Made by a program: the position numbers and the translations under genes. A model generated the notes under the pieces. It was not told the origin of the DNA, ran no database searches, and saw only the letters and a program-made list of their open reading frames with translations. This document shows, in pieces, positions 25,935 to 52,909 of a stretch of DNA of 64,000 nt (position 1 is its first letter; every line of letters starts with the position of its first letter). Source of the DNA: an uncultured Gammaproteobacteria bacterium (GTDB taxonomy: Bacteria; Patescibacteriota; Patescibacteriia; UBA9934; GWF2-40-263); assembly GCA_964538435.1 (NCBI GenBank), contig CAZIDX010000001.1, positions 139,304-203,303 on the forward strand, in the 5' to 3' direction.

Positions 25935-25937
25935 ACT

Positions 25938-33143: not shown

Positions 33144-33200
33144 ACACGCCGAGTATAACAAAATCCCGGACTTACCCGGGATCTGCATTTTTGTCAAGTG

Positions 33201-33946: not shown

Positions 33947-35041
33947 ATGATGTCTGGAGAATTCAACCAACATGGTGGTCTCACACTCGTTGGACTGCGC
34001 GGGTACGAGGCTCTCATCAACACCGTCAAGGACCTCATCGAAACCAAGAGTGGCAACGATGGAGGGAAGACCCCACACACCCCCGTGGACATCGTCCGCC
34101 CCGAGATCAAGCGCTTCGCAAACGGCGAACCTGATGTCCGCCTGCGCAAGCAACATGTCGGTGGTCATGACATCGTCGTAGTGACCTCGGGTCCTGGCAC
34201 AAACGACATGATCATGGAAACACTCTGGGTACTCAACCACCTGGCAGCACATCGCGCATCGCGCATCATGCTGGTGACTGGGTATTTTCCACTCAGCCGA
34301 TCCGACAAGGACGAAGCTGAGGTGCGTCTGACCACTCCACCCATGGTGATCAACTGGTTCAAGATGGCTTCCATGCACCCCAATGGTAAGGACTGCCTAC
34401 TCTGTCGTGTGGTCTGTGCTGACCCGCACAGCGTCCAGCTCACTATGGCCGGAGACTCTGGGTTCATCACCCCGATCTTCTTGACCCGGCGCCTGCTTCG
34501 CCCCACCATTACGGACGCTCTCGAGCAGAACAAGCGCATTGCCCTGGCATTCCCAGACAACAGCGCTGTCGCTCGATTCGAGCCCGCCATTCTCAAGGTG
34601 CAGAAGTCCCTGGACATCGAAATTCCCATCGTGGTCGCAATCAAGCGGCGAGACATGCTCACAGGCAAGTCCACGCTCGTGGGAATGCAAGGAGACCTGG
34701 AGAATCTCGAGGGATCTCTGGTTATCATGTGCGACGACGAGATCGACACCGGTGGCAGCATCATGAACATGGCCACGCTTCTCAGGGACATGTACAAGGT
34801 CGACTCCGTGTGGGCCGCTGTCATTCATGCCGTGTTCAGCGACCCGGCTCCACAACGCTTCATGTTCGCGGACTCACCCGTGGATCGCGTTCTTGCTATG
34901 AACACGATCCCGCACAACAACCGTTCCGAGATCGCCCCTCTGATCGAGTGTGGACGACTGAACATGTATCCCTGGCTCGAAGATCTGGCCTGGTTGATTC
35001 TCATGCACCACTGGAAGGTGGGCATGCGAGAAGCCCGCTAG
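33947..35041 (+). CDS. Divergent ribose-phosphate pyrophosphokinase (PRPP synthetase, Prs) homologue in a G+C-rich cassette
   Basis: SGPGTNDMIMETLWVLNHLAAHRASRIMLVTGYFPLSRSDK aligns with E. coli Prs [42 protein letters not shown]. The C-terminal PRPP-binding loop LVIMCDDEIDTGGS is present. GGAG RBS. The terminator ends GGTTTTCTCATAATTTG. Confidence 0.6.
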   Translation: MMSGEFNQHGGLTLVGLRGYEALINTVKDLIETKSGNDGGKTPHTPVDIVRPEIKRFANGEPDVRLRKQHVGGHDIVVVTSGPGTNDMIMETLWVLNHLAAHRASRIMLVTGYFPLSRSDKDEAEVRLTTPPMVINWFKMASMHPNGKDCLLCRVVCADPHSVQLTMAGDSGFITPIFLTRRLLRPTITDALEQNKRIALAFPDNSAVARFEPAILKVQKSLDIEIPIVVAIKRRDMLTGKSTLVGMQGDLENLEGSLVIMCDDEIDTGGSIMNMATLLRDMYKVDSVWAAVIHAVFSDPAPQRFMFADSPVDRVLAMNTIPHNNRSEIAPLIECGRLNMYPWLEDLAWLILMHHWKVGMREAR

Positions 35042-35131
35042 AACAAAACGACCCGCTTCTCTCTGAGAACCGGGTTTTCTCATAATTTGACATTAGACAA
35101 ACTCACAAAAAAACGAGAGAATGTGATTATT

Positions 35132-36250
35132 ATGTCTCAAAACATCCAAAAAAACATCGACAAACTTCTCGATGGTACAGGAATCAAAATCAACGGCTCA
35201 AATCCCTGGGACATCCAGGTGACCAATGACCGTTTTTACAAACGCGTTCTCACCAAAGGATCTCTTGGCTTTGGAGAGAGCTACATGGACGGCTGGTGGG
35301 AGTGTGATCAAATCGACGAGCTTATCAATCGCATCATGAGCCACAACGTACGCAAGCGCCTCAAATCCAACTGGCCTACTGTTGCGCTCACACTCGCTTC
35401 CATCCTCATCAACAGGCAAAAAGGATCACGATCTTTTCACATTGGAAAAGCCCACTACGACGCAGGCAATAAACTTTACAATCTAATGCTCGACAAAAAC
35501 CTTGTCTACACCTGCGGATACTTCAAAGACACAGACTCACTAGACGTCGCGCAAGAACAAAAACTCGATCTCGTTTGCCGCAAGATTGGACTCAAGCCTG
35601 GAGATCGAGTGCTCGACATTGGTTGCGGCTGGGGAAGCTTTGCAAAATTTGCTGCAGAAAACTACGGCGCACATGTCACAGGAATCACAGTCTCAAAAGA
35701 ACAACTTGCTCTAGCAAAAGAACGTTGTAAGGGTCTACCAGTCGACCTGCGCCTTCAAGACTACCGTGAGGTTGATGAGACATTCGACCACATTGTCTCA
35801 CTAGGGATGGTAGAACACGTTGGATACAAAAACTATAAGACCTACATGAAAGTTGCAGCACGCTGCCTCAAAGACGACGGCCTCTTCCTTCTCCACACCA
35901 TTGGATCACGACACTCAGGCCGCACAACAGACCCATGGATTGAGAAGTACATCTTCCCAAACTCAATGCTCCCATCGCTTGCCCAGCTCACTCAAGCCGC
36001 AGAAGAACACTTCCTCATCGAGGACGTACACAACTTTGGCCCAGACTACGACAAAACACTCATGGCCTGGTTTACCAACTTTGACACACACTGGGACGAG
36101 CTAAAAGACGACTACGACGAGCGTTTCTACCGCATGTGGAAGTATTACCTCCTAGCCTGCGCTGGCTCATTCAGATCAAGAAGCAATCAACTCTGGCAAA
36201 TCGTCCTCTCAAAAAACGGCGTCCCAGGAGGCTACACATCAATTCGATAA
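35132..36250 (+). CDS. cfa: Cyclopropane-fatty-acyl-phospholipid synthase (SAM-dependent)
   Basis: VLDIGCGWG SAM motif I and the CFA-synthase-specific C-terminal motifs (YKYYLLACAGSFR). Confidence 0.85.
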   Translation: MSQNIQKNIDKLLDGTGIKINGSNPWDIQVTNDRFYKRVLTKGSLGFGESYMDGWWECDQIDELINRIMSHNVRKRLKSNWPTVALTLASILINRQKGSRSFHIGKAHYDAGNKLYNLMLDKNLVYTCGYFKDTDSLDVAQEQKLDLVCRKIGLKPGDRVLDIGCGWGSFAKFAAENYGAHVTGITVSKEQLALAKERCKGLPVDLRLQDYREVDETFDHIVSLGMVEHVGYKNYKTYMKVAARCLKDDGLFLLHTIGSRHSGRTTDPWIEKYIFPNSMLPSLAQLTQAAEEHFLIEDVHNFGPDYDKTLMAWFTNFDTHWDELKDDYDERFYRMWKYYLLACAGSFRSRSNQLWQIVLSKNGVPGGYTSIR

Positions 36251-36296
36251 ACAAAAAACACTCTCGCAACAACGAGGGTGTTTTTATTATGTCGAT

Positions 36297-36743
36297 CTAC
36301 TCAAAATCAATCGCGCTTACCAAACTTCCTTTTTCAACCTCATCAAAAACATGTTGGTAATAATCAATAAAATCATGCGGATAATCATCTACCGAACACC
36401 ACACAAGCTCACTACACTTCTCAGGCTCAGTATTTTGTGGCTCCCCCTCCCAATCTGAGCAATGAAAGAAGCAATCAATCCGCTCATGATCTCCACAATG
36501 CCGATGCAGCACATGCTTGCAATCAAGATGCTCAACTTTAACTTTTACACCAACCTCCTCCATAGCCTCGCGCTGCATCGCGCGAAAGACACTCTCCCCA
36601 CCATCAACATGCCCAGCTGGAAGTCCAAGCTCGTTATCTTTGTACCCTGTGTTCTGCCTCCGTAGAGCCAAAAACCGCCCCTGATCATCAATCATGATCA
36701 AGTAGACTGAAACGATCATTTTGTACTTATCTTTCCAGCTCAT
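36297..36743 (-). CDS. Nudix hydrolase
   Basis: Nudix box GHVDGGESVFRAMQREAMEEVGV. Confidence 0.8.
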   Translation of the reverse strand: MSWKDKYKMIVSVYLIMIDDQGRFLALRRQNTGYKDNELGLPAGHVDGGESVFRAMQREAMEEVGVKVKVEHLDCKHVLHRHCGDHERIDCFFHCSDWEGEPQNTEPEKCSELVWCSVDDYPHDFIDYYQHVFDEVEKGSLVSAIDFE

Positions 36744-37309
36744 AGTTCAATTTCGTCAGAGATGCTTTGCATCGCCCGAATCGTGACCTCGAAAAACTTA
36801 GATCGCTCCATACCGATCTTCTCAATGTCCGCGATAAACTCTCGTGACACATTTGCAGCAAAGTGATTTGTTTTAAACTTTTTGTTAAGTGAGCTCGGCT
36901 TCATACCCTCAAGATTCTGTGGTCGCATGAGTGCGTACGCGTAAATAAGCCCAGTGACACTCTCACCAGCAGCTAGAGCATAATCAAGCCGACTTTCACG
37001 CTTCACACCCGTGAAATTCTCATTATGAGACGAAATCGCATGCGCCATCTCCGCAGAAACCTCGAACCCCTCTTCTTTTAGAATCTCAAGCACCCGAAGT
37101 CCATGCTGCTCATGATTCTCCTGCGTCTGCTCCCAATCAAGGTCATGCAAGAGCCCAGCAATTCCCCACTCTTCCTCGTTCTCTCCAAGCTCCTTAGCAA
37201 GCTCACGCATCACAACTTCACTTTCACGAGAATGCATTCGATTGTTTTGATCCTGCAAATTCTTCTCTACAAGCTCCCAGGCTTTTTCTCTCATTGTTTG
37301 CATACGCAC
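36740..37309 (-). CDS. HD-domain phosphohydrolase
   Basis: H...HD motif (GIAGLLHDLD) plus downstream His/Asp positions. The stop overlaps the Nudix start. Confidence 0.6.
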   Translation of the reverse strand: MRMQTMREKAWELVEKNLQDQNNRMHSRESEVVMRELAKELGENEEEWGIAGLLHDLDWEQTQENHEQHGLRVLEILKEEGFEVSAEMAHAISSHNENFTGVKRESRLDYALAAGESVTGLIYAYALMRPQNLEGMKPSSLNKKFKTNHFAANVSREFIADIEKIGMERSKFFEVTIRAMQSISDEIEL

Positions 37310-37396
37310 TCCAGTATAGCACTTTGTATTTTTGAGTAGACAAATACTGATAAAAACGAAATAATACGTACATATAAACCATCATCTTTTCAATCT

Positions 37397-38329
37397 ATGT
37401 TTAAAGGCGACTCAGGCGTTCCTTTCCATGAAATCATGGACAAACAGGAGCCAAAACACCAATTAAACGAACAACAACTAGAGCGAATCGAACATTTGAG
37501 AGAGATAATAGAAACGCCTGCAAGGGGCGAACAGAATGATTGGAAAAAAAGATCAGCAAAACAAATCCTCGAAACAATGGAGTCTCCAGAATTTGCTGAG
37601 GAAGTAAAAAAATACGAAGAACTCATGCGCAAACTCGCTGCTATACAAAAGATCTACGGGAAGAACGATGTTTATTCTCATGTTTCGCTTGCATCGTATG
37701 ATTTGGCAAAACTCGTACAAGTCCGTACACGTGATGAGTATGACCAAGTGAGACCAGAAATTAAACAAGTAGATATTAAGTTGTTCAAAGAAATCTTCGG
37801 TGCTGACCCGCTTGACCGCCCATTTGGCACACCAAGACCAACGGATAACCCCATGTTTATACAAGGGACTCATGTAACAAGTGAGCGAGGTCCTTCTGTA
37901 CCAAATTTCCAACTTGACATAGATTCTTTTGAAAAAATGATCTCAGAAATGGATGAGGCAGAAGCTCAACAAATCGTAAATCGAGAGCTCGACATCGTAA
38001 GAAAACACCTCAACGGAGATGAGGTTGATGAAGACGTTGATTCACATTTGAGTGCTACAAGTGAAGCGTTTTTCTCTTATATTAAACAGGTTGATGATAT
38101 ACCGGGCGTATACTTCCGCACAGCTTCATTCGGATACAAAAACAGTCCTCCATGGTTTATTGTAGCAACAGAGTTTGGTGGTGAAAGAGGTGTTGAATGG
38201 AAATTAACTTTCAATCCAGACAAAAAAGTTTTTGTTCAAAACAAACCACCTACACAAAAAAACGAAGAACCTGTTGAGCTTGCACTTGAAATGATCCCCG
38301 AATTCTTCATGCATAAAGTAAACGAATAA
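37397..38329 (+). CDS. Hypothetical protein (310 aa)
   Basis: Complete low-GC ORF followed by the terminator aaaatgccccacaaggggcatttttt. No recognisable motif. Confidence 0.45.
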   Translation: MFKGDSGVPFHEIMDKQEPKHQLNEQQLERIEHLREIIETPARGEQNDWKKRSAKQILETMESPEFAEEVKKYEELMRKLAAIQKIYGKNDVYSHVSLASYDLAKLVQVRTRDEYDQVRPEIKQVDIKLFKEIFGADPLDRPFGTPRPTDNPMFIQGTHVTSERGPSVPNFQLDIDSFEKMISEMDEAEAQQIVNRELDIVRKHLNGDEVDEDVDSHLSATSEAFFSYIKQVDDIPGVYFRTASFGYKNSPPWFIVATEFGGERGVEWKLTFNPDKKVFVQNKPPTQKNEEPVELALEMIPEFFMHKVNE

Positions 38330-38369
38330 ATCCGATAGCAAAATGCCCCACAAGGGGCATTTTTTGTTT

Positions 38370-39806
38370 CTATTTTTGAGCGCGATCCATCATTTGATAT
38401 ACACCAGCGAGTTGATATGCAGCTGTCTCGATATCCTCTGGAAATGTATAACTCGCAGCATCTGACCAGTCAGCAGGCGGCTTGTTTGCTGTGTTCCTAG
38501 GCAAATCCTCTCGGTGAGAATAACCAGGGTAAGCCTCAACAACAAACGCCTTACTCGGATTTATAGTCACCCAGCTCACACCATTTGTCAGCCACCCCTC
38601 AAACGCCATTCGCAAGTGAGGTTTCTCCGGATTCGTCTGTACATGATCCACCTCTCCAGCCAAAACCATTGCTTCGAGTCCAGGAATATTTGCAATTGCA
38701 TCATCATACAAATACACAGACTCTCTCAAATCCCAATACGCCTCTGACTGCTCAACCGTAGCAATATCCTCTGGCCAACCATACTCACCAAAAATATCAT
38801 TCTCTTCCATAGCCCTTGTCACTGGCCGTGAGAAAAACCACAACTCACCATTCTCTCCACCTTGATACCCATCAAGCGGAAAATCCTCATCAAGCGAAGT
38901 CACTCCATCCACATTCGCGTCCGGTCCCTGCACACTTGTTCCATAATAGTTCCCTGTCGTGTACACCCCATCCCCATCTCCATCATGAAACACAGGGTGC
39001 CATTCTTGCTCAGGGTCGTAAGTCAGGTCGTCATAACTGACAGATAGCATAGTATCACCATATCCAGCATACCGCTCGTTGTAGTAATCATTCTTTGGAC
39101 CACCTTCCTTCACCCACACACGCCCAAAGTCCCGGTTTGCAATCTGACTCGATACAGGCGTCTCCCACTGAACAATGTAACGAAGATTCTCATCAAACTC
39201 GTCCCCATGCAGCGCTGCAGCAGCCACAGGCAAGTTCCCCCCATTTGAAACACCAATCGCTCCAATGTTGTCATGAAGCACAGGCACAGGAGACAAATCA
39301 TCAATCGTATTCCCATCCTCATCCTCGAGCTCACCCGCAGCGAACTTGATCACGTCTGCAAGCGCGCGAATGCAATCCTCTCCACGCCAGTCATACACCC
39401 CGTCTGAGCTAAACCCAGACCACTCATCTGTCACCCCTGGAAAAATGAACGTAAGCACCATCACATCATCAACAGTCGGTGGGAAGTCATGATTAATCCC
39501 TTTTTCCTCGTATCCCCCTGGCACCCACACAACAACCGGAGCACCCTCCTCGTAGCGAGGATTCTCAGGCACATACATCCGCACAGCAAGCGTTCCGCCA
39601 TCAGCACTCTCAGATGGCAATCGCAGATCAATCGCATTCTCAGCTTCTTCACGATCCTGAGAGTCATCAATCACAATATCTCGCGTTGTGTCATCGCTCA
39701 CCACACCCCCATCATCATCTGGAGCCTGTCTTGCAACAAAAAAAGCTATTCCAGCAACCACGATCACAATGATCAAAAGCGCAGATAGCCAAGATTTCTT
39801 CATCAT
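38370..39806 (-). CDS. Membrane-anchored secreted protein, possible alpha/beta-hydrolase fold
   Basis: N-terminal TM helix. GVSNGG (GxSxG-like nucleophile elbow) within ...IGAIGVSNGGNLPVAAAAL... Confidence 0.35.
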   Translation of the reverse strand: MMKKSWLSALLIIVIVVAGIAFFVARQAPDDDGGVVSDDTTRDIVIDDSQDREEAENAIDLRLPSESADGGTLAVRMYVPENPRYEEGAPVVVWVPGGYEEKGINHDFPPTVDDVMVLTFIFPGVTDEWSGFSSDGVYDWRGEDCIRALADVIKFAAGELEDEDGNTIDDLSPVPVLHDNIGAIGVSNGGNLPVAAAALHGDEFDENLRYIVQWETPVSSQIANRDFGRVWVKEGGPKNDYYNERYAGYGDTMLSVSYDDLTYDPEQEWHPVFHDGDGDGVYTTGNYYGTSVQGPDANVDGVTSLDEDFPLDGYQGGENGELWFFSRPVTRAMEENDIFGEYGWPEDIATVEQSEAYWDLRESVYLYDDAIANIPGLEAMVLAGEVDHVQTNPEKPHLRMAFEGWLTNGVSWVTINPSKAFVVEAYPGYSHREDLPRNTANKPPADWSDAASYTFPEDIETAAYQLAGVYQMMDRAQK

Positions 39807-40004
39807 AAAAGTTCACATTAATCTCAATGTTCCAATGGTATACCATTTGCCAAGCCAATTCTACTAGCCCTCATGTCTATCTGCCAAAAAGCTAAGAAAT
39901 AAACATTTCTTAAAAGAGAAGACACACCCCCGAAGAGGTGTGTCCGTCTGGCGTAGAGCCAGCTTGCCCGCCATAGCTCGTCAGAGCGACGGTGGGTCGC
40001 GTTG

Positions 40005-40919
40005 CTAGGCCGCGGTCGCCTGCTGACCAGCGCGTCGCTTGGCCTCGGCAGCAGTGCGTGCGAGCGCGTCATCGAGAGAACGCTCGGCCTTACGCTTACT
40101 TGCTCGGTCCTCCTCGAACTCCTCGGCCATGCTGTCGAGCTTGGCCTTGAGCTCATCCATCCGGCCTTCATCCACGCTGCTCGCGAAGATGCCGGCCAGG
40201 ATGTAGTCCAGGAACGCTGGCGTGCTACGAATCTGCGCGACCCGCTGCTCGTACTTGGCCTTCACAGCCTCGTACTCGGCACGGATCTTGACCGCGTATT
40301 CCGAATCGTCTCCTTCGTACCGCTTCACGATCTTACTCAGCTCGTGCACGGCCACTGCCAGCTTTGCTTCGTCCTCAATGTAGGACGGGAGGCAGGTGCC
40401 CACGAGCCACTCGATGCGGTCACTGATCGAACCAGCTACCATCCCGGCCTCGGGTGCGGCCTTGCGAATCTGCTCGATACCGCGACGCACAGCACCACGA
40501 ACCGAGAGCATACGCAGCCGGCGAAGCGGGGCGAACTTGAGCGAGAGCCATTTCCAGCCACGCTTGAGCAGTCCACCGGTTCCCTGCAGCGCAGCCTGAG
40601 CCGTGAAGCTCAGCACGATGACCACGAGGCCTTGTAGGAAGCTGATCAGGTCCATCCCCCACACACCGACCCCGAAGAGAATCGCAGTGATCGCGTAGAA
40701 CACGGTGGAGTAGATCCAGCCGTAGCCAGAGAACACACCGTCAGGCAGCTTGGTCTCTCCCTTGTTCTTGAGGAACAACTGAGTCGACTCGTGCACCTGC
40801 TTGATGTTGCGGAACATGAACACGGCGCCCATGAACGTTGTCAGGCCCATGAGCCCGAGGTAGAGCATGGTCTGCGTGAACGTAACCATATGCGAGAGGA
40901 AAGTGATGGTAATGTCCAT
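40005..40919 (-). CDS. 3-TM membrane protein with a long cytoplasmic coiled-coil tail (G+C-rich cassette), divergent from the PNP-like gene
   Basis: GGAGGG RBS before the ATG at 40919. Three N-terminal hydrophobic helices, then a charged Ala/Glu/Lys/Arg-rich helical C-terminus. Confidence 0.55.
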   Translation of the reverse strand: MDITITFLSHMVTFTQTMLYLGLMGLTTFMGAVFMFRNIKQVHESTQLFLKNKGETKLPDGVFSGYGWIYSTVFYAITAILFGVGVWGMDLISFLQGLVVIVLSFTAQAALQGTGGLLKRGWKWLSLKFAPLRRLRMLSVRGAVRRGIEQIRKAAPEAGMVAGSISDRIEWLVGTCLPSYIEDEAKLAVAVHELSKIVKRYEGDDSEYAVKIRAEYEAVKAKYEQRVAQIRSTPAFLDYILAGIFASSVDEGRMDELKAKLDSMAEEFEEDRASKRKAERSLDDALARTAAEAKRRAGQQATAA

Positions 40920-40967
40920 CTGATGCCCTCCACGGCTTGTTGTTTCAGGAAGCTTGGAAACAAGAAA

Positions 40968-40992
40968 AACTACCATAAAACGGTAGTTTTGT
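40968..40992. promoter_or_regulatory. Perfect 9-bp-arm palindrome aaaactacc-ataaaac-ggtagtttt inside the divergent promoter region
   Basis: Lies between the putative -35 (TTGACA) and -10 (TAGTTT) of the minus-strand gene 40005..40919, so it is operator-like. Confidence 0.4.
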
Positions 40993-41056
40993 CAAGCAAT
41001 AAGTATGATATTTTACCAATAATCCGCCAATTCTAAAGAAAACTGACATTTTGAAG

Positions 41057-41084
41057 TTGACACTCCATCAAAAACCGCTAGAAT
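41057..41084 (+). promoter_or_regulatory. Near-consensus promoter for the PNP-like gene
   Basis: TTGACA (41057-41062), 16-nt spacer, TAGAAT (41079-41084). Confidence 0.5.
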
Positions 41085-41121
41085 GCCCATCTGCCCAAAC
41101 CAAGACAGGAGGTCTTCGCGC

Positions 41122-42027
41122 ATGGGACGACTCAGAGAAGAAGGAATCAAAATCCTCAAGGCACACGGAACCGATCCCACTGGATCCAATGCCATGGGGC
41201 TCATCCTGGGCACAGGCTGGTCTGATCCTGACGTGCTCAACGGACTCGGTCTCAAGATCGAAGAAGTCATTCACTTCAGCGAGGTCGGCATCGATCCTGG
41301 CACTGGCGCCGGTCATCCGAACTGCTTCCTGCTCGGCACATGGCATGGGCGAGAGGTTGTGCTCAGCCACGGTCGCGTGCACATGTACCAGGACCGCGCT
41401 GCGCGCTGCGCAAGCGAGTCCATCCTCCGCAAGTGGTTCGCGGTCTTCCTAGCTCTGATGGGAGACGGTCGCAAGATCGTGCCCACCAGCTCAGTCGGTG
41501 GTGTCGGCCACAAGACCAAGGCTGGCATGGTCGTCAAGCCGGTCGGCCTCATCTCAGCTCACCTCCCTCAGACCTACCTGGACGGCAACGCTGGCGAGTT
41601 CGTCATGGGCGAGCACCTGATCTGGGACAACCACGCCGAATTCAACATCGACCGAACGCACCTCGCCCTGCTGTTCAGGCAGGCCGCGCGTGAAGCCGAT
41701 CTCAAGCCCGACCTCTACGGTCAGCACATCGTGGTTCCTGGCCCCGGCTTCGGAGGCGCTGCCGAGCGCAACCTCTGGGACCAGTGGGGCATCAAGTCTG
41801 TGGGCATGTCCCTCGATCCCGAGCTGCGACTCCTCGCCCTCGAGATGATGACCAACGACTCGGACGAGCCCGAGTACGAGGTCCTCCCAGCCTTCATCGT
41901 CACGGACGACCACGATCTCCCCATCCACGAACAGATCCAGGCCGCAGCCAAGGCCCGTGCCCCCCAGCTCGGCCGCTTCCTCTCCCATGTCGTACGCACC
42001 GACTGGGACGCAATCACCCTGCCCTAA
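41122..42027 (+). CDS. Purine nucleoside phosphorylase family-2 (PNP/MTAP-like) homologue in a G+C-rich cassette
   Basis: AMGLILGTGWSD...EVIHFSEVGIDPGTGAGHPNCFLLGTWHGREVVLSHGRVHMYQ aligns with human PNP GSGLGGL...[49 protein letters not shown] matches GMSTVPE. AGGAGG RBS. The terminator ends GGGTTTTCTATTTC. Confidence 0.65.
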   Translation: MGRLREEGIKILKAHGTDPTGSNAMGLILGTGWSDPDVLNGLGLKIEEVIHFSEVGIDPGTGAGHPNCFLLGTWHGREVVLSHGRVHMYQDRAARCASESILRKWFAVFLALMGDGRKIVPTSSVGGVGHKTKAGMVVKPVGLISAHLPQTYLDGNAGEFVMGEHLIWDNHAEFNIDRTHLALLFRQAAREADLKPDLYGQHIVVPGPGFGGAAERNLWDQWGIKSVGMSLDPELRLLALEMMTNDSDEPEYEVLPAFIVTDDHDLPIHEQIQAAAKARAPQLGRFLSHVVRTDWDAITLP

Positions 42028-42093
42028 TCGGTAGGGTTTTCTATTTCAAACAAACAGAAAACCGCCCAGACTTACGTCAAAGGCGGCGCGTAG

Positions 42094-42738
42094 CTACCAG
42101 GCCCTGTTGAACGTTCCCGTTGCAAACAGTGGCAGCTCTTCGATGTGTTCATCTAATGTGTTCAAAGGATCGTACACCCCGTCCAAAATCCACAGATCCA
42201 TGATCTGAGCCCGAACGTTTGTTGACCCAAAGTACTCCCAGTCCTCTCCTGCCTCTGCTCTGCGCACATCCCCGATCATAAGGATATCGCGAAACAGCGG
42301 CGGTGGCGATTGCATGGAACCCACGAAGGTTCCATTCTCGCACCAGAAGTGACCTCCGTTGAACGTGAAAAAGTGATCATCGGTCATGCTCGATTCGTAG
42401 GAGTCGAACACTCCTTCAGCATCGAGAAACAACTCGTCATCATCGACACGTAGGAGCAACATGCTCTCGATCTCGATCTCTGGCTCAACATCGAGCCAAC
42501 CGCTCACAGAACCATCAAAGAGTTCTGGATCGGTTGTGGTGATGAAGATCACGCGGTCAGAGTACTCAATGTCTTCACCCTGAAAGGCATCGAAAAAGCT
42601 CGTATGACACTCGGTCTGAAGCACGTCCTCAGCAAGCTCCTTGTCAACAGGCTGCACAACGCAACCCACCAACAGAAGCAGAAGACTACATCGCACGACT
42701 AAACTTCCCATGGGCATGACGTGACATCGTGGCCACAT
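42094..42738 (-). CDS. Lipoprotein, paralogue A (G+C-rich cassette)
   Basis: Signal peptide with lipobox LLLLVGC. Paralogous to 42686..43297 (shared ...EDWEYFGS.../...EEFWVAYDED... and ...WILDGVYD.../...WLLDGEYS... blocks). The start is uncertain (ATG at 42711-42738). Confidence 0.5.
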   Translation of the reverse strand: MWPRCHVMPMGSLVVRCSLLLLLVGCVVQPVDKELAEDVLQTECHTSFFDAFQGEDIEYSDRVIFITTTDPELFDGSVSGWLDVEPEIEIESMLLLRVDDDELFLDAEGVFDSYESSMTDDHFFTFNGGHFWCENGTFVGSMQSPPPLFRDILMIGDVRRAEAGEDWEYFGSTNVRAQIMDLWILDGVYDPLNTLDEHIEELPLFATGTFNRAW

Positions 42739-43297
42739 GTTCCTGCAGGCTCATACTCGAGCTGTACTCGCCGTCCAGGAGCCAGAAGTCACACATCTCC
42801 CACTCGCGATCCTCATCGTACGCCACCCAGAACTCTTCACGACCAACAGCCCCTCGACAGAACGCGATCAGCAGAAAGTCATGAGTCGCCAGGCTCACCT
42901 CCCCCACGAACGACCCATCCTCGCACCAGGTGTAGTTGTCGAACTCGTAGGCAGCACCAATGCCAGCGTCATAGTCGCCGAAGCTGAACCCCTCGATCGT
43001 GCCCATGGCGCTCAGATAGGTCTGATCACCATGGTAGATCCAGAGCCCGAACATCCCCTCCATGTCGAGCGTGTGATTGATGATCGCCATGTGGAAATCG
43101 TAGAAGAGCGAGGTGTCGTAACCCCGCGTCTTCCCATGAAAAACCGCTTCGTCGTAACGGGTGTAGTCCTCACCTGGAAGGTCGAAGAACTCAGCCGAAC
43201 AGGCCAGATCACTCCCCGTATCGTAGAGGAACTTATCCTCATCACGCGGCGTACAGTTGAAAAGGCAGCTTGCAGAGACAAGCAACAATGCTCGCAT
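42686..43297 (-). CDS. Lipoprotein, paralogue B (G+C-rich cassette)
   Basis: Signal peptide MRALLLVSASC. Tandem paralogue of the previous gene. Upstream promoter TTGACT-16-TATATT. Confidence 0.5.
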   Translation of the reverse strand: MRALLLVSASCLFNCTPRDEDKFLYDTGSDLACSAEFFDLPGEDYTRYDEAVFHGKTRGYDTSLFYDFHMAIINHTLDMEGMFGLWIYHGDQTYLSAMGTIEGFSFGDYDAGIGAAYEFDNYTWCEDGSFVGEVSLATHDFLLIAFCRGAVGREEFWVAYDEDREWEMCDFWLLDGEYSSSMSLQEHVATMSRHAHGKFSRAM

Positions 43298-43530
43298 GTG
43301 AACCTCATGTTCTTTTCACCACTCGTCATGAGCGGAGAAAAAATATACCAGAATCTGACGAAAAGTCAAGAAATAAAGCATGATCGCCTACGCCTGCTAT
43401 TTCATCGATGACATGAACAACGAGTGGTACTTCGACTTTTAAACCAACAAAACAAAGACAAGCACCCACCAACCCTATGCGACGGTGGGTGTTTCTTTTA
43501 TACTGTTCTTATAACAACCAATACCACTCT

Positions 43531-44667: not shown

Positions 44668-44720
44668 TTTCAAGACACCCAAACCAAAAACACCCCAGCT
44701 TAGCCAGGGTGTTTTTATTT

Positions 44721-45113: not shown

Positions 45114-45279
45114 AAGTGTTTTAAGCAGGAAGTACTTCGCTGATACAACCCATGGTCTCTTTTGAGATCAAGCGAATGTGCCGACTAGATAAGTCCTGTA
45201 AGAATAACCGCTGAAAACTATCTGATTTCCAACATTCTGTCAAGGAACCAAAAACACCCTCTTTGCGAGGATGCTTCTT

Positions 45280-45660
45280 TTATCGAACGAGTTTCTTCAA
45301 ATGCTTGTTGATCTGCTTTTCAATTTCTGGATACACAACCGTCTCATGATGCTCGAGCCACAAATCTCCAGTAAGCGATCGATCAGGTCCAACTGTAAGC
45401 GTATCATCGATGCTGAGGCAAATGACTTGTTTCTTCGAAAGATTCACCTTTTTCTCAACCTCGACCTGGATATCCGCATGCATACAAATGATCGTATCTG
45501 CATGCTTAATCCTTAGTCTTGTGCTTTGATTCTTCAAATGCATTCCCACAGCATAAGACTTAATACCCTTTGTTAACAGGTATTCTTTCAGATATCGGCC
45601 TAGATTCATTCCATGCGTTCCGACGATGGTAATTGTTGGAGTACTTCTTGGATAAGACAT
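45280..45660 (-). CDS. Hypothetical protein (126 aa)
   Basis: Complete ORF with no confident motif. Confidence 0.35.
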   Translation of the reverse strand: MSYPRSTPTITIVGTHGMNLGRYLKEYLLTKGIKSYAVGMHLKNQSTRLRIKHADTIICMHADIQVEVEKKVNLSKKQVICLSIDDTLTVGPDRSLTGDLWLEHHETVVYPEIEKQINKHLKKLVR

Positions 45661-45724
45661 GGTCTAAGCCTGCCAGATTGTCAAGATTTTGTCAAGAAAA
45701 CACCCCTTTTTTGCGCTCATTTAC

Positions 45725-47398
45725 CTATTCAAATCCGTCATTCACCCACTGTGCCGCATTCTCAAGAAGAAAGTTAGTTTCACTTAGAAACTCGGGATGT
45801 AGCGCAAACAAAACCGTCTTTCCTTCCCCATACTCACTGGTCACGATTGCACCTTCACCACTAGCGGAATATGAACCATCAAAATCCACCGTATACGTTG
45901 CAAGGACCTGCGCATCACCACTCACCTCAAATACTGGGCCACCACGATACGCCATGGTCATAAGATCTCCAGATACATAATCACCCAAGATCTCATGCTC
46001 CACAACAATCATTAGATCTGGGTTATAACTGCCTCCTATATAGCTTGTCCAGCCTGTGTCGTAAATTGCAGTCACACCAAGCCCAACCCCAAGCATGTTA
46101 AAACTTAGACTGTAGTAATCAAGAAGCGTCATGCTCTGAGCCCCAGCAATTGCACCACCGCACACCCCAATGAACCCACCACCATCGCTTACAAACGACT
46201 GCACAGCAGATTGAATAGCACTATTACCCATTACTTCTGTAACTGCATCTTCTCCACCTGGATAAACAAGCAAATCGTAATCATCAACGGAAATTCCTGC
46301 CTCAACTTGTGAACGAGAAAGTCGAGTCACAGAGTATCCTTCATTATTCAAAATACTCTCGATCGGTGCCACACCACTGCTAGATGTTTCTACAAGCGCA
46401 ACTGAATACAAACTTGCATCATACTCTGGCTCAGGTTCTGGCTCAGGTTCTGGGACAACAACAAGCGCCCCAAGCGCAAGCCATGAAACAGTCTCTGCTG
46501 CATGCACATTGTCCCAACCAGCATGCGTGAGCTCTTCAAGCTGTGCTGTGAACCCACTCGTAGTTACATCTTTGATATCTACACGGACAGTATCAGACTC
46601 ATTCTCGCTTTGAAGACTCACCAACACATTTGGCACCTCCTCATACACCTCACCACAATCCTCAGCAAAGCAAACTGTTGCCCAAACATGATCAAGACTC
46701 ACATCATTTGTCAGTATTCCATAAGCAGACAAATCAACGACTGGATCGATTGCAAGATATGCAACATCCTCATACGTATGCCAGGTATCCCAACCACTCA
46801 TATCAGGACCAGGATCTTCTTCAAGTCGAAGCGTTGCCCCACCCTCGCTCAAAGCAAGCAAATCAGCACGGACTGTATGTCCCCCGTTCTCGGTCTGAAC
46901 CTCGAAGAACATTCGCGGATCCGAGCTAAAACTCTCCACAAAACTCAAACTGCTTGAATCAGACCAAGAGGCTTGTCTAAAATTTGTTATTCCAACCTCA
47001 ACACCAACACCCCCAGGAACCTGACTAGGATCTACAGCAAACCAGCTCACATCTTCATAATAATGCCACCCATCAAGCCAATTCTTTTGTTTGCCTTTAT
47101 CCTCCTCAAGACGAATCTCAAAACTTGTTGTGCTCACATTTCGAATATCCACCTGGACATCCTGACCCCCGTTCTCAGTCTGTATTTCTGCAAACACTAC
47201 TGGAATTGCATCAAAAACATCATCAAACTCAACATTTACCCAACCATGCCTCACGTTCACCACTCCCGTCTGAGAAAAAACAGTTTCAGGATCGACATCA
47301 TTAATCTCGGCTGATGCAATGCCAGTTGTTTGTGCAAAAACAAACACAAACAAAAACGCCATATTCACATACCGCGATATTTTACTTTTTGCCCTCAT
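45725..47398 (-). CDS. Secreted multidomain protein: three tandem H-type-lectin-like repeats, a PEPEPEPE linker and a class-I glutamine-amidotransferase-like/BPL_N-like domain
   Basis: Signal peptide. Three ~95-aa repeats sharing the pattern ...VQTENGG.TVR.D...(S/T)..GF...LEED.G...W...H.YEDV.(W/Y)LA.D.... Linker [16 protein letters not shown]-terminal LLVYPGGEDA...GGGFIGVCGGA. Confidence 0.45.
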   Translation of the reverse strand: MRAKSKISRYVNMAFLFVFVFAQTTGIASAEINDVDPETVFSQTGVVNVRHGWVNVEFDDVFDAIPVVFAEIQTENGGQDVQVDIRNVSTTSFEIRLEEDKGKQKNWLDGWHYYEDVSWFAVDPSQVPGGVGVEVGITNFRQASWSDSSSLSFVESFSSDPRMFFEVQTENGGHTVRADLLALSEGGATLRLEEDPGPDMSGWDTWHTYEDVAYLAIDPVVDLSAYGILTNDVSLDHVWATVCFAEDCGEVYEEVPNVLVSLQSENESDTVRVDIKDVTTSGFTAQLEELTHAGWDNVHAAETVSWLALGALVVVPEPEPEPEPEYDASLYSVALVETSSSGVAPIESILNNEGYSVTRLSRSQVEAGISVDDYDLLVYPGGEDAVTEVMGNSAIQSAVQSFVSDGGGFIGVCGGAIAGAQSMTLLDYYSLSFNMLGVGLGVTAIYDTGWTSYIGGSYNPDLMIVVEHEILGDYVSGDLMTMAYRGGPVFEVSGDAQVLATYTVDFDGSYSASGEGAIVTSEYGEGKTVLFALHPEFLSETNFLLENAAQWVNDGFE

Positions 47399-47552
47399 AT
47401 CATTTGTTGAAAATACTTAGTTTCCTTTATCTTACCCAATTCAAGCACCAAAACTTATCCACAAATAGAATATAACCAAAAAACTCACAATCACACTTTT
47501 GCAATCAAACTCAACCTGATAACATGCGCAGAGCTTATCAAAGACAAAAACT

Positions 47553-49682
47553 ATGACAGAAAAAACAAAGAAGCACCCAAAACTGCTGCTGATCCTATCA
47601 ATACTCGCATTGTTTACGCCACTTTCAATGTTCCCCATGCTCTGGATGGGTAACCAGTCAGCAACATTCCTTATCTTTTGTCTCATTGTTGAACTCTCCT
47701 TCCCACTATACGCATACCACCTCCTCAAAAACCCAAAGGACTGCCCTAACCTAAAAAGTCCTGTCCTCCTACTCTTCCTGGGGTTCCTGCTCATGTATGT
47801 TGTTTCAAGTCTCTTTGGGATGGATTTCCATAACAGTTTTTGGAGTAACGGAATGAGGTTCACTGGTCATTTCTTGCACATACACATTATCGCATACGTA
47901 CTTTATCTCGTTCTTCTTCTCAAGTGGTACGGGAAAAAGGGCTACAAAACCATTCTTACAACCATCTCTCTCGTTGGAGGTATGGCAGCGCTCTATGGCA
48001 CACTGGAATACTTTGGAATCATACCAACCTATGCACCCGCGTTCCTACCGCGTGCATCAAGCGTATTTGGAAACCCAACATTGTTTGGCTCATTCTTAAC
48101 CATCCCATTCTTCTTTGCAGTACTCGCCTCTCTTCACGGGAGTACAAAGAAAACCATTTGGCTCAATCAAATCCTGGCAATCATTATCCTGGGGGGCGTG
48201 TTCGCCTCAGGTGCACGCGGAGCCCTTGTTGGTATTGCTGTGGGACTAATCGTTGGACTCATTGCACGCACAATCAAAGAAAAGAAAAAAGGGTTGAGAA
48301 AAAAACTTGTCTCTGCAAGTATCCTTATCGCACTTATTGCCGGATTTGCTTTTGCAATCACCTACCACAACTCAACAGAAGGCTCACTTGCCTACCGACT
48401 CACACACTTTGCTACAGAAACCTCATCAGAACGCCTTGTGCTTTGGGGAGTAGCCTGGGAAGGATTTAAGGAAGAGCCGTGGCTTGGACGTGGTTATGAA
48501 AACTACTATCAAATCGCGGAATCAAACTTCAATCCAGAACAATATCAATACTCAAACATTTGGCCTGACAAGCCTCACAACCAACTCCTAGAAATCCTAT
48601 CTACTGGTGGAATTTTCGTATTCATTCTTTACCTGCTTCTCCTAGGATTCATGGCAAAATCATTTTGCTCATCCTCAAAACAAAACAAATTTTCACACAC
48701 AGATTCGAGCGTGCTCCTTGCGGCTCTTGCGGGATACATAGCACAATCTGTCTTCTTGTTTGATACGGTCGCAAGCTGGATTACTTTTTCAGTTCTTTTG
48801 GCTCTTGCTCTTTACACAGAACGCGCTGCGAAACGCGAACACAAAAACGGCAAACTTCCAGCATGGACAAAAAAGGTGCTACCTGCACTCCTCCTTGTTG
48901 GATCACTCACTCTCATCTTCTGTATTCTCCGACCTATTCTTTTAGATCTCTACAAGATTGATAAAGCAGCCGACCTGCAGATGACAGACATGAATCGCTC
49001 AATTCAACTGACTCAAGAATTTGGCTCGCATGGATTTGAGTTCGATTCAAATATTGCAGCCTCAACCACCAAATCAATCCTCACGACAGCATTCATATTC
49101 TCTGAGTTTAGTGCTGAACAACAAACAGCACTTCTTGAAACAATGATCGAACAATACGATCGAACCATCGAGCTCCACCCTGAACGCGCAGCATTTCTGT
49201 ACGAATATATTGCTTCAGAAATTCCCGCTTATCGATACATGAAATTAGAGCCACAGATCGAAGAGTGGATTGAGAAACTTGATAAGCTAAAAGCCTTAGT
49301 TCCAAACCGAAAAGAAATTCCGGGGGTGTGGGCTCAGATCGGCCTCGCATACTTCAGTATCGATATGCGAGATGAGGGCTTAGCCTATCTCAGAGAAAAA
49401 GCCGAACAAAACCCAGAAACAACATCGTACAAGGACCTAGTTTTTGCAATGACGGGATATTACACGAGCAATAAACTCTATGAGACCACAGCCTTCTTGT
49501 TTGAAATTTTAATCGAGGAATATCCAGAAGACCCTCAATTCTACGCCAGCCTCGCTTCCACATATCATGTTATGGGCGACATAGAAAAAGCAATTGAAAC
49601 CGCAGAGCGACTGCTTGAACTTGGAGATCAGCATCAAGAAAGCGTCGATTGGTTCATGGAACAAATCCTAGCAGAAGAATAA
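47553..49682 (+). CDS. O-antigen ligase/polymerase-like (Wzy_C) membrane protein with C-terminal TPR repeats
   Basis: About 10 TM helices, a conserved periplasmic loop ...RLVLWGVAWEGFKEEPWLGRGYENYYQ..., and TPR-like helical repeats at the C-terminus. The terminator aaaaaaccggctcaggccggtttttt follows. Confidence 0.65.
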   Translation: MTEKTKKHPKLLLILSILALFTPLSMFPMLWMGNQSATFLIFCLIVELSFPLYAYHLLKNPKDCPNLKSPVLLLFLGFLLMYVVSSLFGMDFHNSFWSNGMRFTGHFLHIHIIAYVLYLVLLLKWYGKKGYKTILTTISLVGGMAALYGTLEYFGIIPTYAPAFLPRASSVFGNPTLFGSFLTIPFFFAVLASLHGSTKKTIWLNQILAIIILGGVFASGARGALVGIAVGLIVGLIARTIKEKKKGLRKKLVSASILIALIAGFAFAITYHNSTEGSLAYRLTHFATETSSERLVLWGVAWEGFKEEPWLGRGYENYYQIAESNFNPEQYQYSNIWPDKPHNQLLEILSTGGIFVFILYLLLLGFMAKSFCSSSKQNKFSHTDSSVLLAALAGYIAQSVFLFDTVASWITFSVLLALALYTERAAKREHKNGKLPAWTKKVLPALLLVGSLTLIFCILRPILLDLYKIDKAADLQMTDMNRSIQLTQEFGSHGFEFDSNIAASTTKSILTTAFIFSEFSAEQQTALLETMIEQYDRTIELHPERAAFLYEYIASEIPAYRYMKLEPQIEEWIEKLDKLKALVPNRKEIPGVWAQIGLAYFSIDMRDEGLAYLREKAEQNPETTSYKDLVFAMTGYYTSNKLYETTAFLFEILIEEYPEDPQFYASLASTYHVMGDIEKAIETAERLLELGDQHQESVDWFMEQILAEE

Positions 49683-49708
49683 TCAAAAAACCGGCTCAGG
49701 CCGGTTTT

Positions 49709-50149
49709 TTATTTGCCAAGTTGTTTCATGATCAGATCAACACCCTGCTGGATATGCCGAAACCGATCAGAACCCAGATGGACCCCACCATACCAACGCG
49801 TCACCACTACACAAACATTCACAAGATTTGCTTTTCGCAGCGCACGCAAAATAATCATACTCGCACCTGTTTCACCATCATCCCCCTTCCTTTCAACAAC
49901 TGAACCATCTTGAACATAACGCGCCGCAAACATATTATGCGTTGCTTTTGCGTACTTCTTATTTGTTTTCATAAGAGCGAGAAAATCTTTTAACCCCCTG
50001 TCGCTTTCCACTCTTCCTCCAGATACAGCGTACTTTGATCCACGATCAATCGTATAGTGATGTACCTGAACCCAAGTATGCCTAACATCATTTTCATTTG
50101 AAAACAACATTCCAAGTTGATCAGTATTCATACCATTCAATTTTACCAC
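49709..50149 (-). CDS. IMPACT/YigZ (UPF0029) family protein
   Basis: VVVTRWYGGVHLGSDRF matches the family signature. Confidence 0.6.
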   Translation of the reverse strand: MVKLNGMNTDQLGMLFSNENDVRHTWVQVHHYTIDRGSKYAVSGGRVESDRGLKDFLALMKTNKKYAKATHNMFAARYVQDGSVVERKGDDGETGASMIILRALRKANLVNVCVVVTRWYGGVHLGSDRFRHIQQGVDLIMKQLGK

Positions 50150-50195
50150 TTCAACAATAACAAATAGAAAACCCCCGCCAAAGCAGGGGCTCGTT

Positions 50196-51269
50196 TCAAC
50201 CCCAGTGAATCTGTCTCTGATGTCGTATCAGAGCTCGCTTCACTGCTCGAAGCTGGTCTCGTATCTCACTCTCCTCGGTGGGAAGAGGCTCGAGAAGAAA
50301 TGGACATTCACTGAGCACAGCCCTCACATCTATGTTGCTCGGCCCCTGATCCACTCGGGCTGGATCAAGTCCCAGCATGGTAGGCGCGAAAAGCTCGTTC
50401 ATGGTGAGCAACGTATACTCACGCGTCTCAACGAAACTCTGACCCACGTCTCCGACCACACATCCCTCCTTGCCCTGCCAGACCTCCTCAGCCACCTGAG
50501 CGTAACGCTCAGAAGCGATTGTCTGCTCATGAAGCAAGCAAAGATCTGTGAACGTCTTTCCTGAAGAAGGCCCCTTCTCCTCAGTCACGTGGAAGATGGC
50601 CTGTGATAGAACCACCATCAAGTCCATACCGTGCTTCTTGCAGGACTCCCAGGTCCGAGCAACGCCCTGCCACGACCCAGCAGCCACAAAGAGAATGATT
50701 CGCGCAGGCATGCGCCCACCTTCCTCCTGCGCCTTCTGAGCAATGAATTCGACCATTGCCTCACCAGTCGACCCGGACGCCATTGCCCCTTCGGCAATGA
50801 TGATATTCTCGGCAAAGAAGTAGCCCTTGTGAGAATCCCTCACCACCGCCTTCCACACACCGGGCGACACTTCCCTGCGCCCCGCCTCCATAAAGGACGT
50901 TTGCAAGGGAAGGATGTTGTGCTCATCAAAGAGATCAGCCATCCCCTTCCACGCGCGAAAGTACAGACCCCCGTTGAGCGGAACCCATTGCGCGAAGTTG
51001 CCGCTGAGATCACGGAGTTCATCACCCACCGCCCAAATCATGCTGCGTATCAGGTGCTTTGCAGCACGAATTCGATCACGTCCCATGACCATACGATGGA
51101 AGAACACCTCTCCAGGCGCCGATTCCACAACGTACATACGAGGTGGGAACGCGTCTGGTCTCAAGCGAAAATTCATTCGCAGACGAACCGTGTCCAAATC
51201 CCATTTGGTAATGGAAGGTTGACCAGGAACACGTACCTCCTGAGGCACACCAACATCTTCAAGAAGCAT
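50196..51269 (-). CDS. Hypothetical G+C-rich protein with a possible type-I PRTase (UPRTase-like) region
   Basis: AAAGGAGG RBS before the ATG at 51269. IIIAEGAMASGSTGEAMVEFIAQ...ARIILFVAAGSWQGVA loosely resembles Upp DPMLATGGSVIATIDLL...IKVLVLVAAPEGIAAL. The terminator ends GGGGGTTTTCTATTTG. Confidence 0.4.
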   Translation of the reverse strand: MLLEDVGVPQEVRVPGQPSITKWDLDTVRLRMNFRLRPDAFPPRMYVVESAPGEVFFHRMVMGRDRIRAAKHLIRSMIWAVGDELRDLSGNFAQWVPLNGGLYFRAWKGMADLFDEHNILPLQTSFMEAGRREVSPGVWKAVVRDSHKGYFFAENIIIAEGAMASGSTGEAMVEFIAQKAQEEGGRMPARIILFVAAGSWQGVARTWESCKKHGMDLMVVLSQAIFHVTEEKGPSSGKTFTDLCLLHEQTIASERYAQVAEEVWQGKEGCVVGDVGQSFVETREYTLLTMNELFAPTMLGLDPARVDQGPSNIDVRAVLSECPFLLEPLPTEESEIRDQLRAVKRALIRHQRQIHWG

Positions 51270-52831: not shown

Positions 52832-52909
52832 ACAAAAAAAGCAGGCCTCGCGCCTGTTTTTGTTTGACACATTTTGTCTTACCCCATATTCTCAAAATAT
52901 GGAGGTCTA

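Follow-up and report, generated by a model that had tools for sequence, protein, structure and literature searches.

Introduction

The locus described here raises the question of whether genes that are far richer in G+C than those around them are recent arrivals or long-standing residents of the genome that carries them. The window, by which we mean the entire 64-kb stretch of contig CAZIDX010000001.1 that was analyzed, has a mean G+C content of 48%. Most of its genes have a G+C content of 0.40–0.49 and a third-codon-position G+C content (GC3) of ~0.45 (median 0.45–0.46), and scattered genes reach G+C values of 0.55–0.66. Three of the latter, all predicted to act on nucleosides or phosphoribosyl pyrophosphate (PRPP), are the subject of the current study:

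33947–35041, + strand: Prs-like protein, 364 aa; G+C 0.57, GC3 0.72
41122–42027, + strand: PNP-like phosphorylase of the trimeric PNP/MTAP type, 301 aa; G+C 0.62, GC3 0.77
50196–51269, − strand: UPRTase-like type I phosphoribosyltransferase (hereafter the third protein) of an undescribed rare family, 357 aa; G+C 0.55, GC3 0.59

A first-pass annotation of the window had already placed Prs-, PNP-, and UPRTase-type genes at these positions and proposed that they were acquired piecemeal on separate G+C-rich cassettes. All three open reading frames (ORFs) exist and are G+C-rich (0.57, 0.62, and 0.55, respectively), as it had described. The reading that we prefer, to which we assign a probability of roughly 0.55, is that the three genes are long-resident, lineage-typical members of divergent families and that their products form a route from nucleosides via PRPP to nucleotides, with both the substrates and the order of the pathway being predictions. 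Under the same reading and at the same level of confidence, their high G+C content is an old family trait within resident genomes and not the scar of a recent import.

The closest homologues of the focal proteins are encoded by Candidatus Uhrbacteria, Magasanikbacteria, and other Patescibacteria, and by its sequence the window is assigned to the chromosome of a Patescibacteria bacterium of the candidate phyla radiation (CPR), one that is Uhrbacteria-like. Several of the metagenome-assembled genomes among the loci that we compared carry labels such as “uncultured Gammaproteobacteria” (one of these is a 1.0-Mb chromosome), and judging from gene content and composition they are probably mislabeled Patescibacteria. 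Nucleotide-synthesis capacity is often missing in CPR bacteria (PMC7304191), and the host-dependent, reduced-genome context that had been suggested for the three genes fits with this affiliation.

Results

The raised GC3 is a family-wide property of Prs-like genes

We fetched 49 genomic loci encoding relatives of the Prs-like protein, and the offset statistic was calculated from the 36 independent CPR loci that had four or more neighboring genes. In every one of these 36 loci, the GC3 of the Prs-like gene exceeded the median of its neighbors, with a median excess of +0.16 and values of up to +0.41 (Wilcoxon 3e-11); the gene ranked highest in 19 of them and among the top two in 29. Regression of Prs-like GC3 on neighbor GC3 yielded r 0.75, a slope of 0.84, and an intercept of +0.24, and the Prs-like genes were still above their neighbors in G+C-rich genomes (0.87 vs 0.77), which is the opposite of what a shared G+C-rich gene pool predicts. 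The conserved families that flank these genes (TsaD, DnaE, PheT, and MgsA) exhibited no GC3 offset, and the Prs-like copies of Gemmatimonadota and Polyangiales exhibited essentially none. GC3 was similarly raised for the PNP-like family in roughly 9–10 of 12 comparable loci and for the third protein in all four loci compared. Since proteins that are only 40–55% identical have saturated synonymous sites, we infer that the offset is actively maintained and is not a remnant of import. A search of the literature on codon-usage or GC3 heterogeneity in CPR bacteria, or on Prs and PNP in Patescibacteria, found nothing relevant.

The G+C excess ends with the coding sequence

Within the window, the raised G+C is confined to coding sequences (CDS), and the intergenic DNA flanking each of the three genes has a G+C content of 0.39–0.48. 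The Prs-like gene and the third gene each constitute a single-gene G+C-rich block, and the PNP-like gene lies inside a four-gene block at 40005–43297. These blocks bear no convincing marks of mobility: the window has no tRNA genes, no integrase or transposase domain was present among the part of its ORFs that was scanned with Pfam, and no convincing repeats marking the blocks as mobile cassettes were found. One imperfect direct repeat (39879–39903 and 43353–43377, 21 of 25 nt identical), which is intergenic and brackets the PNP block, is marginal and could be due to chance. Rfam and tRNA scans of the window returned no rRNA, tRNA, or other RNA matches, which rules out RNA genes as the source of the G+C-rich patches; the patches are therefore protein-coding.

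The G+C-rich genes also carry the strand signature of their surroundings. GC skew is negative across the whole window (1–64000), and strand asymmetry is very strong, with third codon positions favoring C/A in genes on the + strand and G/T in those on the − strand, such that codon use is heavily dependent upon orientation. Among the G+C-rich genes of the window, 9 of 10 keep the sign of their own strand's skew at fourfold sites.

Gene order around the three genes is conserved across divergent lineages

The neighbors that are relevant to a comparison with other genomes are as follows:

3649–4263: HD_3/YfbR-like gene, the sole other HD protein found in the window
31881–33851, − strand: MgsA/RarA and DUF6629 genes (Pfam), baseline G+C, which anchor the conserved position of the Prs-like gene
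36297–36743, − strand: low-GC Nudix hydrolase (Pfam NUDIX, 4e-20)
36740–37309, − strand: low-GC HD hydrolase (Pfam HD, 1e-8)
40005–40976, − strand: G+C-rich membrane/coiled-coil protein beside the PNP-like gene, 323 aa, GC3 0.76, without a Pfam match
42094–43297, − strand: two G+C-rich genes 3' of the PNP-like gene, encoding a 214 aa lipoprotein-like protein and a 203 aa protein, without a Pfam match
47553–50149: Wzy_C/TPR protein (+ strand) and Impact_N/YigZ-like protein (− strand), baseline G+C (Pfam), adjoining the third gene in an order that matches that of locus L001

The Prs-like gene of the window is preceded by BNR-like, RskA-like, MgsA, and DUF6629 genes. The BNR-like and RskA-like genes are shared with the Uhrbacteria locus L007, in which the Prs-like protein is 55% identical, and all four are shared with L010, another Uhrbacteria locus, in which it is 44% identical; MgsA and DUF6629 lie ~2.5 kb upstream of the Prs-like gene in L010 and immediately before it in the Logan contig of the window itself. 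Within 11 loci of the Magasanikbacteria type, the gene is found near TsaD and DnaE, directly between the two in about half of them, with Fpg and PheT nearby.

The neighborhood of the other two genes is shared with L001 (GCA_900089805.1), where the order reads CMAS, Nudix, HD, ..., PNP-like, ..., Wzy, Impact, third gene, methyltransferase. The L001 counterparts of the window's G+C-rich genes are themselves G+C-rich, including orthologues of both genes at 42094–43297, which follow the PNP-like gene there as well. The Nudix/HD pair (36297–37309) has an orthologous pair in L001, and a 28%-identical homologue of the protein encoded at 40005–40976 is found upstream of CMAS there. Between Impact_N and the third gene, L001 encodes a RimK-type ATP-grasp protein (15541–16482), which is absent from that position in the window; a distant RimK-like gene is located at 61177–62058, ~10 kb from the third gene.

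The Prs-like protein is a divergent paralogue of ribose-phosphate diphosphokinase

The assignments of the Prs-like and PNP-like proteins both hold at the superfamily level, as judged by Pfam, PDB, and family profiles. The Prs-like protein contains both the N- and C-terminal Prs domains (Pribosyltran_N, PF13793, 1.7e-11; Pribosyltran, PF00156; Pribosyl_synth, PF14572), and it matches Prs chains of the PDB down to 2e-15 as a single sequence and 6e-30 by family profile. It has >265 homologues, mainly in Patescibacteria. The motifs SGEP, RSDKDE, DxH, KRR, and DDEIxTGG are kept, four of which (RSDKDE, DxH, KRR, and DDEIDTGGS) align with PRPS motifs, and both the ribose-5-phosphate loop and the flexible catalytic loop of Prs are retained. 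Its score against TIGR01251 is 108.9 bits, which is under the cut-off of 113, whereas the canonical Prs of L030 scores 307 bits. Loci L030 (5471–14654) and L050 (6893–14596) encode, in a row between TsaD and DnaE, a canonical low-GC Prs, DUF6899, a G+C-rich uridine kinase, and a G+C-rich Prs-like protein, so that two Prs-type genes of opposite composition occur no more than 1.3 kb apart. Because the Prs-like protein coexists with a canonical Prs in these two related genomes, it is not simply the organism's Prs. Based upon its sequence, we consider it to be a divergent ribose-phosphate diphosphokinase paralogue, whose exact reaction may differ from the canonical one, as in the phage enzyme Adps.

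CPR-type Prs-like genes are also found on contigs of Gemmatimonadota and Polyangiales/Myxococcota, where they occur at native G+C (L009, L011–L015, L019, L045, and L054). Within a midpoint-rooted distance tree, which is only indicative, these non-CPR copies group together as one derived clade within the CPR sequences, suggesting a putative inter-phylum transfer.

The PNP-like protein probably has an altered base specificity

The PNP-like protein starts at 41122 (MGRL...), with an N-terminus that is common to its homologues, of which 34 were found. It matches PF01048 at 1.1e-6 with 28.7 bits, above the gathering score of 25.1, and trimeric PNP structures of the PDB at 1e-7 (2e-15 with a family profile), whereas its scores against the curated PNP and MTAP models of NCBIfam (TIGR01697/TIGR01694) are far below the cut-offs (best 56 vs 218 and 46 vs 197). 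Residues binding phosphate and ribose are kept, as GTG, R85, H87, and M229-S230 do not vary among 19 family members and the Tyr88 position is occupied by Y or N. In a family-profile alignment to human PNP, it is the residues specifying 6-oxopurines that are changed: E201, the glutamate of the FE pair, is replaced by G, and N243 by D. Asp at the position of human PNP Asn243 favors 6-aminopurines and 6-aminopurine nucleosides, as in MTAP and the N243D mutant. The base specificity of the PNP-like protein probably differs from that of the 6-oxopurine PNPs.

The third protein is UPRTase-like at the level of the fold

As a single sequence, the third protein yielded no matches in Pfam (including PF14681), NCBIfam, or the PDB, and its family is small: 42 representatives were found among 1.84 billion proteins, and no more than 5 homologues are close. 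A profile built from 41 family sequences matches the UPRTase structures 2e55 (5e-5) and 1vst (2e-4), with aligned counterparts for the hood arginine, PRPP loop, and C-terminal GD.G motif of UPRTases. AlphaFold (AF2) models reached predicted local distance difference test (pLDDT) values of 67 with 5 sequences and 95.6 with 41, and UPRTases occupied the top 13 and top 14 Foldseek matches of these two models, respectively, against the PDB (E down to 3e-7); the pLDDT 95.6 model has template modeling (TM) scores of 0.53–0.62 on the UPRTase targets. PF14681 weakly matches just 3 of the 41 relatives, with a best E of 0.031. The protein contains the PRPP-loop-like motif IIIAEGAMASGST plus a VGDVG motif. 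The segments AEGAMASGST (A164 and G166 invariant) and VGDVGQSF (D274 nearly invariant) are related to the DPxxATGGS and GLGDxGDR of UPRTases, but they are not canonical. The tentative UPRTase-like call of the first-pass annotation is accordingly right at the fold level, both by the profile match to 2e55 and by AlphaFold/Foldseek, with PF14681 remaining unmatched; the third protein falls outside the UPRTase family as currently defined. A distant relative, P0183, consists of a HAD phosphatase fused to a UPRTase-like domain with a canonical GDTIATGGT PRPP loop.

Codon pattern of the G+C-rich genes

A pooled comparison had suggested a signature limited to C-ending codons, which we rejected because pooling is confounded by strand asymmetry; comparison within strands gave a softer result. 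The latter comparison left out 25712–26470, 42737–43411, and 63135–63857, which are probably shadow frames of opposite-strand genes, as well as the doubtful ORFs at 2104–2760 and 52965–53372. Within strands, third-position C rises strongly in the G+C-rich genes and G moderately, with A and T both declining. The rising codons are NNC, AAG, CAG, CTG, CGC, and GGC, and no rise as a share of their own amino acid is seen for GGG, CGG, AGG, or TTG. This pattern, together with the sharp confinement to CDS, tilts the balance towards codon selection, such as for strong expression. As a lead idea, we propose expression-linked selection for G/C-ending (especially C-ending) codons as the most likely force. 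The strength of Shine-Dalgarno motifs was considered as a proxy for expression, but it is uninformative in a genome largely devoid of them; upstream of most gene starts in the window, no recognizable motif is present.

A putative nucleoside salvage route

The genes found beside members of the three families are frequently related to nucleotide metabolism. In L002, the Prs-like gene is directly upstream of a PNP-like gene on the same strand; in L030 and L050 it adjoins a uridine kinase; in L043 it is followed by an ITPase-like gene; and in Polyangiales a phosphoribosyltransferase is located nearby. An HD–Nudix pair immediately precedes the homologue of the third protein in L067, with a MazG-like gene upstream. 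Low-GC hydrolases near the three window genes had been noted previously as two HD proteins and a Nudix; the Nudix and one HD protein are present (36297–37309), whereas the only other HD protein found is the distant one at 3649–4263, outside the 33947–51269 interval concerned.

We envision that the PNP-like enzyme would split scavenged nucleosides into base and ribose-1-phosphate. Following conversion of the latter to ribose-5-phosphate, the Prs-like enzyme would produce PRPP or a close analogue, which the UPRTase-like enzyme would then join to a base, yielding a nucleotide. The neighboring HD and Nudix hydrolases may feed the pool. Presumably, a gene-specific force acting upon synonymous sites keeps these families G/C-ending in each resident genome.

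Other features of the window

Among the remaining genes with baseline G+C is a complete-looking operon:

4293–13885, − strand: V/A-type ATPase operon (subunits I, c/K, E, C, F, A, B, and D)

Further baseline genes encode MetRS, TatD, an M17 peptidase, AhpC, and a CMAS-type methyltransferase. The most extreme outlier of the window is a 593-aa orphan at 16317–18098 (+ strand, GC3 0.90), which forms a divergent pair with a gene at 14976–16121 (− strand) encoding an acidic protein with long PEPEPK repeats; neither product gives an informative Pfam match. A G+C-rich trio at 800–3577 comprises a vWA-domain protein (800–2161), an overlapping Cys-rich ORF without a Pfam match (2104–2760), and a weakly Nudix-like product (2843–3577), the gene of which has a strong Shine-Dalgarno motif. 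The protein encoded at 29183–30034 (+ strand) combines an ATP-cone, an Mrr-type restriction-endonuclease domain, and an AF1548-like C-terminal domain and may be a nucleotide-sensing nuclease. At 45725–47398 (− strand), a 557 aa protein combines H-type lectin domains with a BPL_N/class-I glutamine-amidotransferase-like domain, and it has no counterpart in the syntenic region of L001. A low-G+C gene at 53920–54915 (+ strand) encodes a 331-aa protein-kinase-like protein (Pkinase/RIO/APH-type) and is located just 3' of a G+C-rich orphan (53324–53812, GC3 0.82). A frameshifted G+C-rich HD gene, which we had suspected at 52874–53812 from comparison with L001, was rejected when tblastn of the L001 HD protein against the window gave no match.

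Discussion

Several explanations could be offered for the raised G+C of these genes. Separate, recent import of each gene as a cassette from a G+C-rich donor, with the salvage route assembled piecemeal, is certainly what their compositional deviation brings to mind (GC3 0.59–0.77 vs a median of 0.45–0.46), and it is consistent with the presence of the Prs-like family in G+C-rich Gemmatimonadota and Polyangiales, with the orphans and the integrase fragment among other GC3 outliers, and with the different neighbors of the third gene in L067 and L068. However, import does not account for positions conserved across lineages whose proteins are just 44–55% identical, nor for a Prs-like offset that occurs in 36 of 36 loci and tracks the resident GC3 with a slope of 0.84, including in genomes that are G+C-richer than a shared gene pool would predict. 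It is similarly at odds with a G+C excess that stops at the CDS ends of genes bearing the resident strand skew, with non-CPR Prs-like copies that are nested inside CPR as a single derived clade, and with blocks that lack both flanking mobility genes (among Pfam-scanned ORFs) and tRNA (by tRNA scan). Conserved synteny, the family-wide offset, the CDS-limited excess, and the resident strand skew thus leave piecemeal acquisition already disfavored, and we regard it as very improbable; the observation from which the idea arose is confirmed, and its interpretation is partly supported. Alternatively, the genes could be long-resident, but with their G+C raised by GC-biased gene conversion at loci that recombine unusually often among related populations, such as after DNA uptake. 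A general shift towards G/C-ending codons (C strongly, G moderately, with A/T down), its presence at any genome G+C, and the fluid gene order around the PNP block would all fit such a process. Speaking against it, the excess breaks off sharply at CDS boundaries, core genes only a few dozen bases away are spared, and the shares of GGG, CGG, and AGG do not rise. Accordingly, we consider gene conversion to be unlikely, albeit deserving of more credence than the other alternatives.

Two further possibilities concern function. The three enzymes together with the HD and Nudix hydrolases had also been suggested to comprise a dispersed toolkit of nucleotide depletion or modification in conflict (defense or counter-defense), and Prs-like, phosphoribosyltransferase, HD, Nudix, and MazG domains do recur in conflict systems. 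Phage NARP1 uses the PRPS-like enzyme Adps (PMC13586617). Moreover, weak Pfam PRTase-CE matches occur in 4 of 41 members of the third-protein family (the window protein plus relatives), and the Nudix gene of the window matches the PADLOC candidate PDC-S07. Against this, none of the three enzymes has a match in PADLOC-DB 2.0 at E ≤ 0.01, and tblastn against 50,697 phage records recovered only generic Prs at 24–27% identity and nothing for the third protein, a result that also led us to reject a phage origin. No Namat/NAMPT partner was found beside the Prs-like gene in the window or the Pfam-checked loci (for most of the 49 loci, the comparison relied on sequence clustering only), and Prs-like genes occupy fixed positions among core genes (TsaD, DnaE, and MgsA), not variable islands. 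A conflict toolkit is consequently the explanation to which we give the least weight. It is somewhat less improbable that PRPP serves a non-nucleotide purpose, for example phosphoribosyl transfer to an envelope or lipid acceptor, or that the substrate which the Prs-like enzyme pyrophosphorylates is not ribose-5-phosphate. In five lineages, the gene of a G+C-rich CDP-alcohol phosphatidyltransferase-like membrane protein comes after the Prs-like gene or near the PNP-like gene, the third gene is close to that of a Wzy_C protein, and in P0183, which is distantly related to the third protein, a HAD phosphatase is joined to the UPRTase-like domain. Furthermore, the Prs-like protein scores under its curated cut-off, departs from the FxDGE and RQDR motifs, and occurs alongside a canonical Prs. 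Yet the other recurrent neighbors are classic salvage enzymes (uridine kinase, PNP-like, ITPase-like, and phosphoribosyltransferase), and the ribose-5-phosphate and catalytic loops are retained, which makes a role outside salvage doubtful in our view.

Long residence with a maintained codon bias in a salvage route is therefore the reading that we favor, although several observations weigh against it. Regarding the route, no phosphopentomutase was present among the window ORFs that were scanned with Pfam. Regarding residence, the PNP block and a neighboring two-gene zf_Tbcl/126-aa block occur in swapped order between the window and L001, and the marginal 25-nt repeat brackets the former, making either a local rearrangement or movement of the PNP block as a unit possible. 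The Prs-like gene does not adjoin CMAS in L001, and the protein search returned no ortholog-level (≥75% identity) Prs-like match from the FLOH01 genome, even though its PNP-like protein is 79–82% identical; the presence of the Prs-like gene may hence vary between close relatives. Orphans account for many of the other GC3 outliers in these genomes, which also include a phage integrase fragment, so some G+C-rich genes may be true imports. As for expression-linked selection, G-ending codons also rise relative to their A-ending partners, which would fit a general G+C-raising force too, and genes that are likely to be well expressed are at or near baseline (V-type ATPase GC3 0.35–0.54, AhpC 0.55). 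A motif search of all fetched loci returned no usable reference genes of the ribosomal-protein, EF-Tu, or GroEL type.

If the favored reading is correct, a G+C-rich gene in a CPR genome is not automatically foreign, and composition-based detection of transfer would misclassify whole enzyme families here. For enzymology, the analysis brings forward three poorly annotated families that would be central to nucleotide acquisition in ultra-small symbiotic bacteria: a Prs paralogue under curated cut-offs, a PNP-like protein with altered base contacts, and a rare UPRTase-like protein without a Pfam or NCBIfam model. For evolutionary studies, an offset spanning dozens of lineages beside baseline core genes provides a natural test case of synonymous-site selection vs biased gene conversion in slow-growing, reduced genomes. 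One could go further and speculate, though we would hold it to be a long shot, that Patescibacteria employ, as a functional device, a distinct G/C-ending codon dialect for a small set of nucleoside/PRPP genes (Prs-like, PNP-like, UPRTase-like, uridine kinase, ITPase-like, and CDP-alcohol-transferase-like). Such a dialect could tie their expression to the nucleotide or tRNA supply of an organism living on scavenged nucleotides, and the Prs-like and UPRTase-like reactions could then differ from canonical PRPP synthesis and uracil salvage.

Comparison with known systems

The Prs-like protein shares its two-domain architecture with the class I Prs enzymes, such as human PRPS1 and B. subtilis Prs (1DKR), with which ~280 residues can be aligned, including RxDK, DxH, the KRR-loop, and DDxxxTGG. 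It differs from them in being only ~25% identical, in falling under the TIGR01251 cut-off, in its consistently raised GC3, in carrying a GGLTL extension at its N-terminus and an HHW..S.R..R motif at its C-terminus, in the replacement of FxDGE by SGEP/NGEP and of RQDR by RSDK, and in sharing at least two genomes with a canonical Prs. Phage Adps, which acts on ADP-ribose in the NAD+ reconstitution pathway of NARP1, likewise has a PRPS-like scaffold that differs from that of canonical Prs, and by analogy a different acceptor or donor geometry may be possible for the Prs-like protein (PMC13586617). Unlike Adps, the Prs-like protein has no nearby Namat partner, and the phage Prs-like proteins (24–27% identity) are no closer to it than is cellular Prs.

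The PNP-like protein has the PF01048 fold of the trimeric PNP/MTAP enzymes (human PNP, XapA, and MTAP) and keeps equivalents of the phosphate-binding Ser/Thr, Arg84, His86, Tyr88, and Met219-Ser220, but it carries Gly and Asp at Glu201 and Asn243 and scores under all PNP and MTAP cut-offs of NCBIfam. For the third protein, UPRTase (Upp; 1I5E, 2E55, and 1O5O) is the nearest solved fold, and the hood arginine, the PRPP loop, and GD.G align by profile. Despite this, it is only 12–16% identical to UPRTases, it lacks a PF14681 match, and at 357 aa vs ~210 it is considerably longer, with an insert and with terminal extensions that are beta-rich at the N-terminus and helical at the C-terminus. Its PRPP loop reads AEGAMASGST vs DPMLATGGS. 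Lastly, the raised GC3 resembles known gene-specific biases of codon usage or G+C, whether through expression-linked selection or biased gene conversion, in being limited to the CDS and synonymous sites and in its direction towards C-ending and selected G-ending codons. What sets it apart is its size (median +0.16, up to +0.41) and its persistence in a single enzyme family across 36 lineages, in which the neighboring core genes are unaffected.

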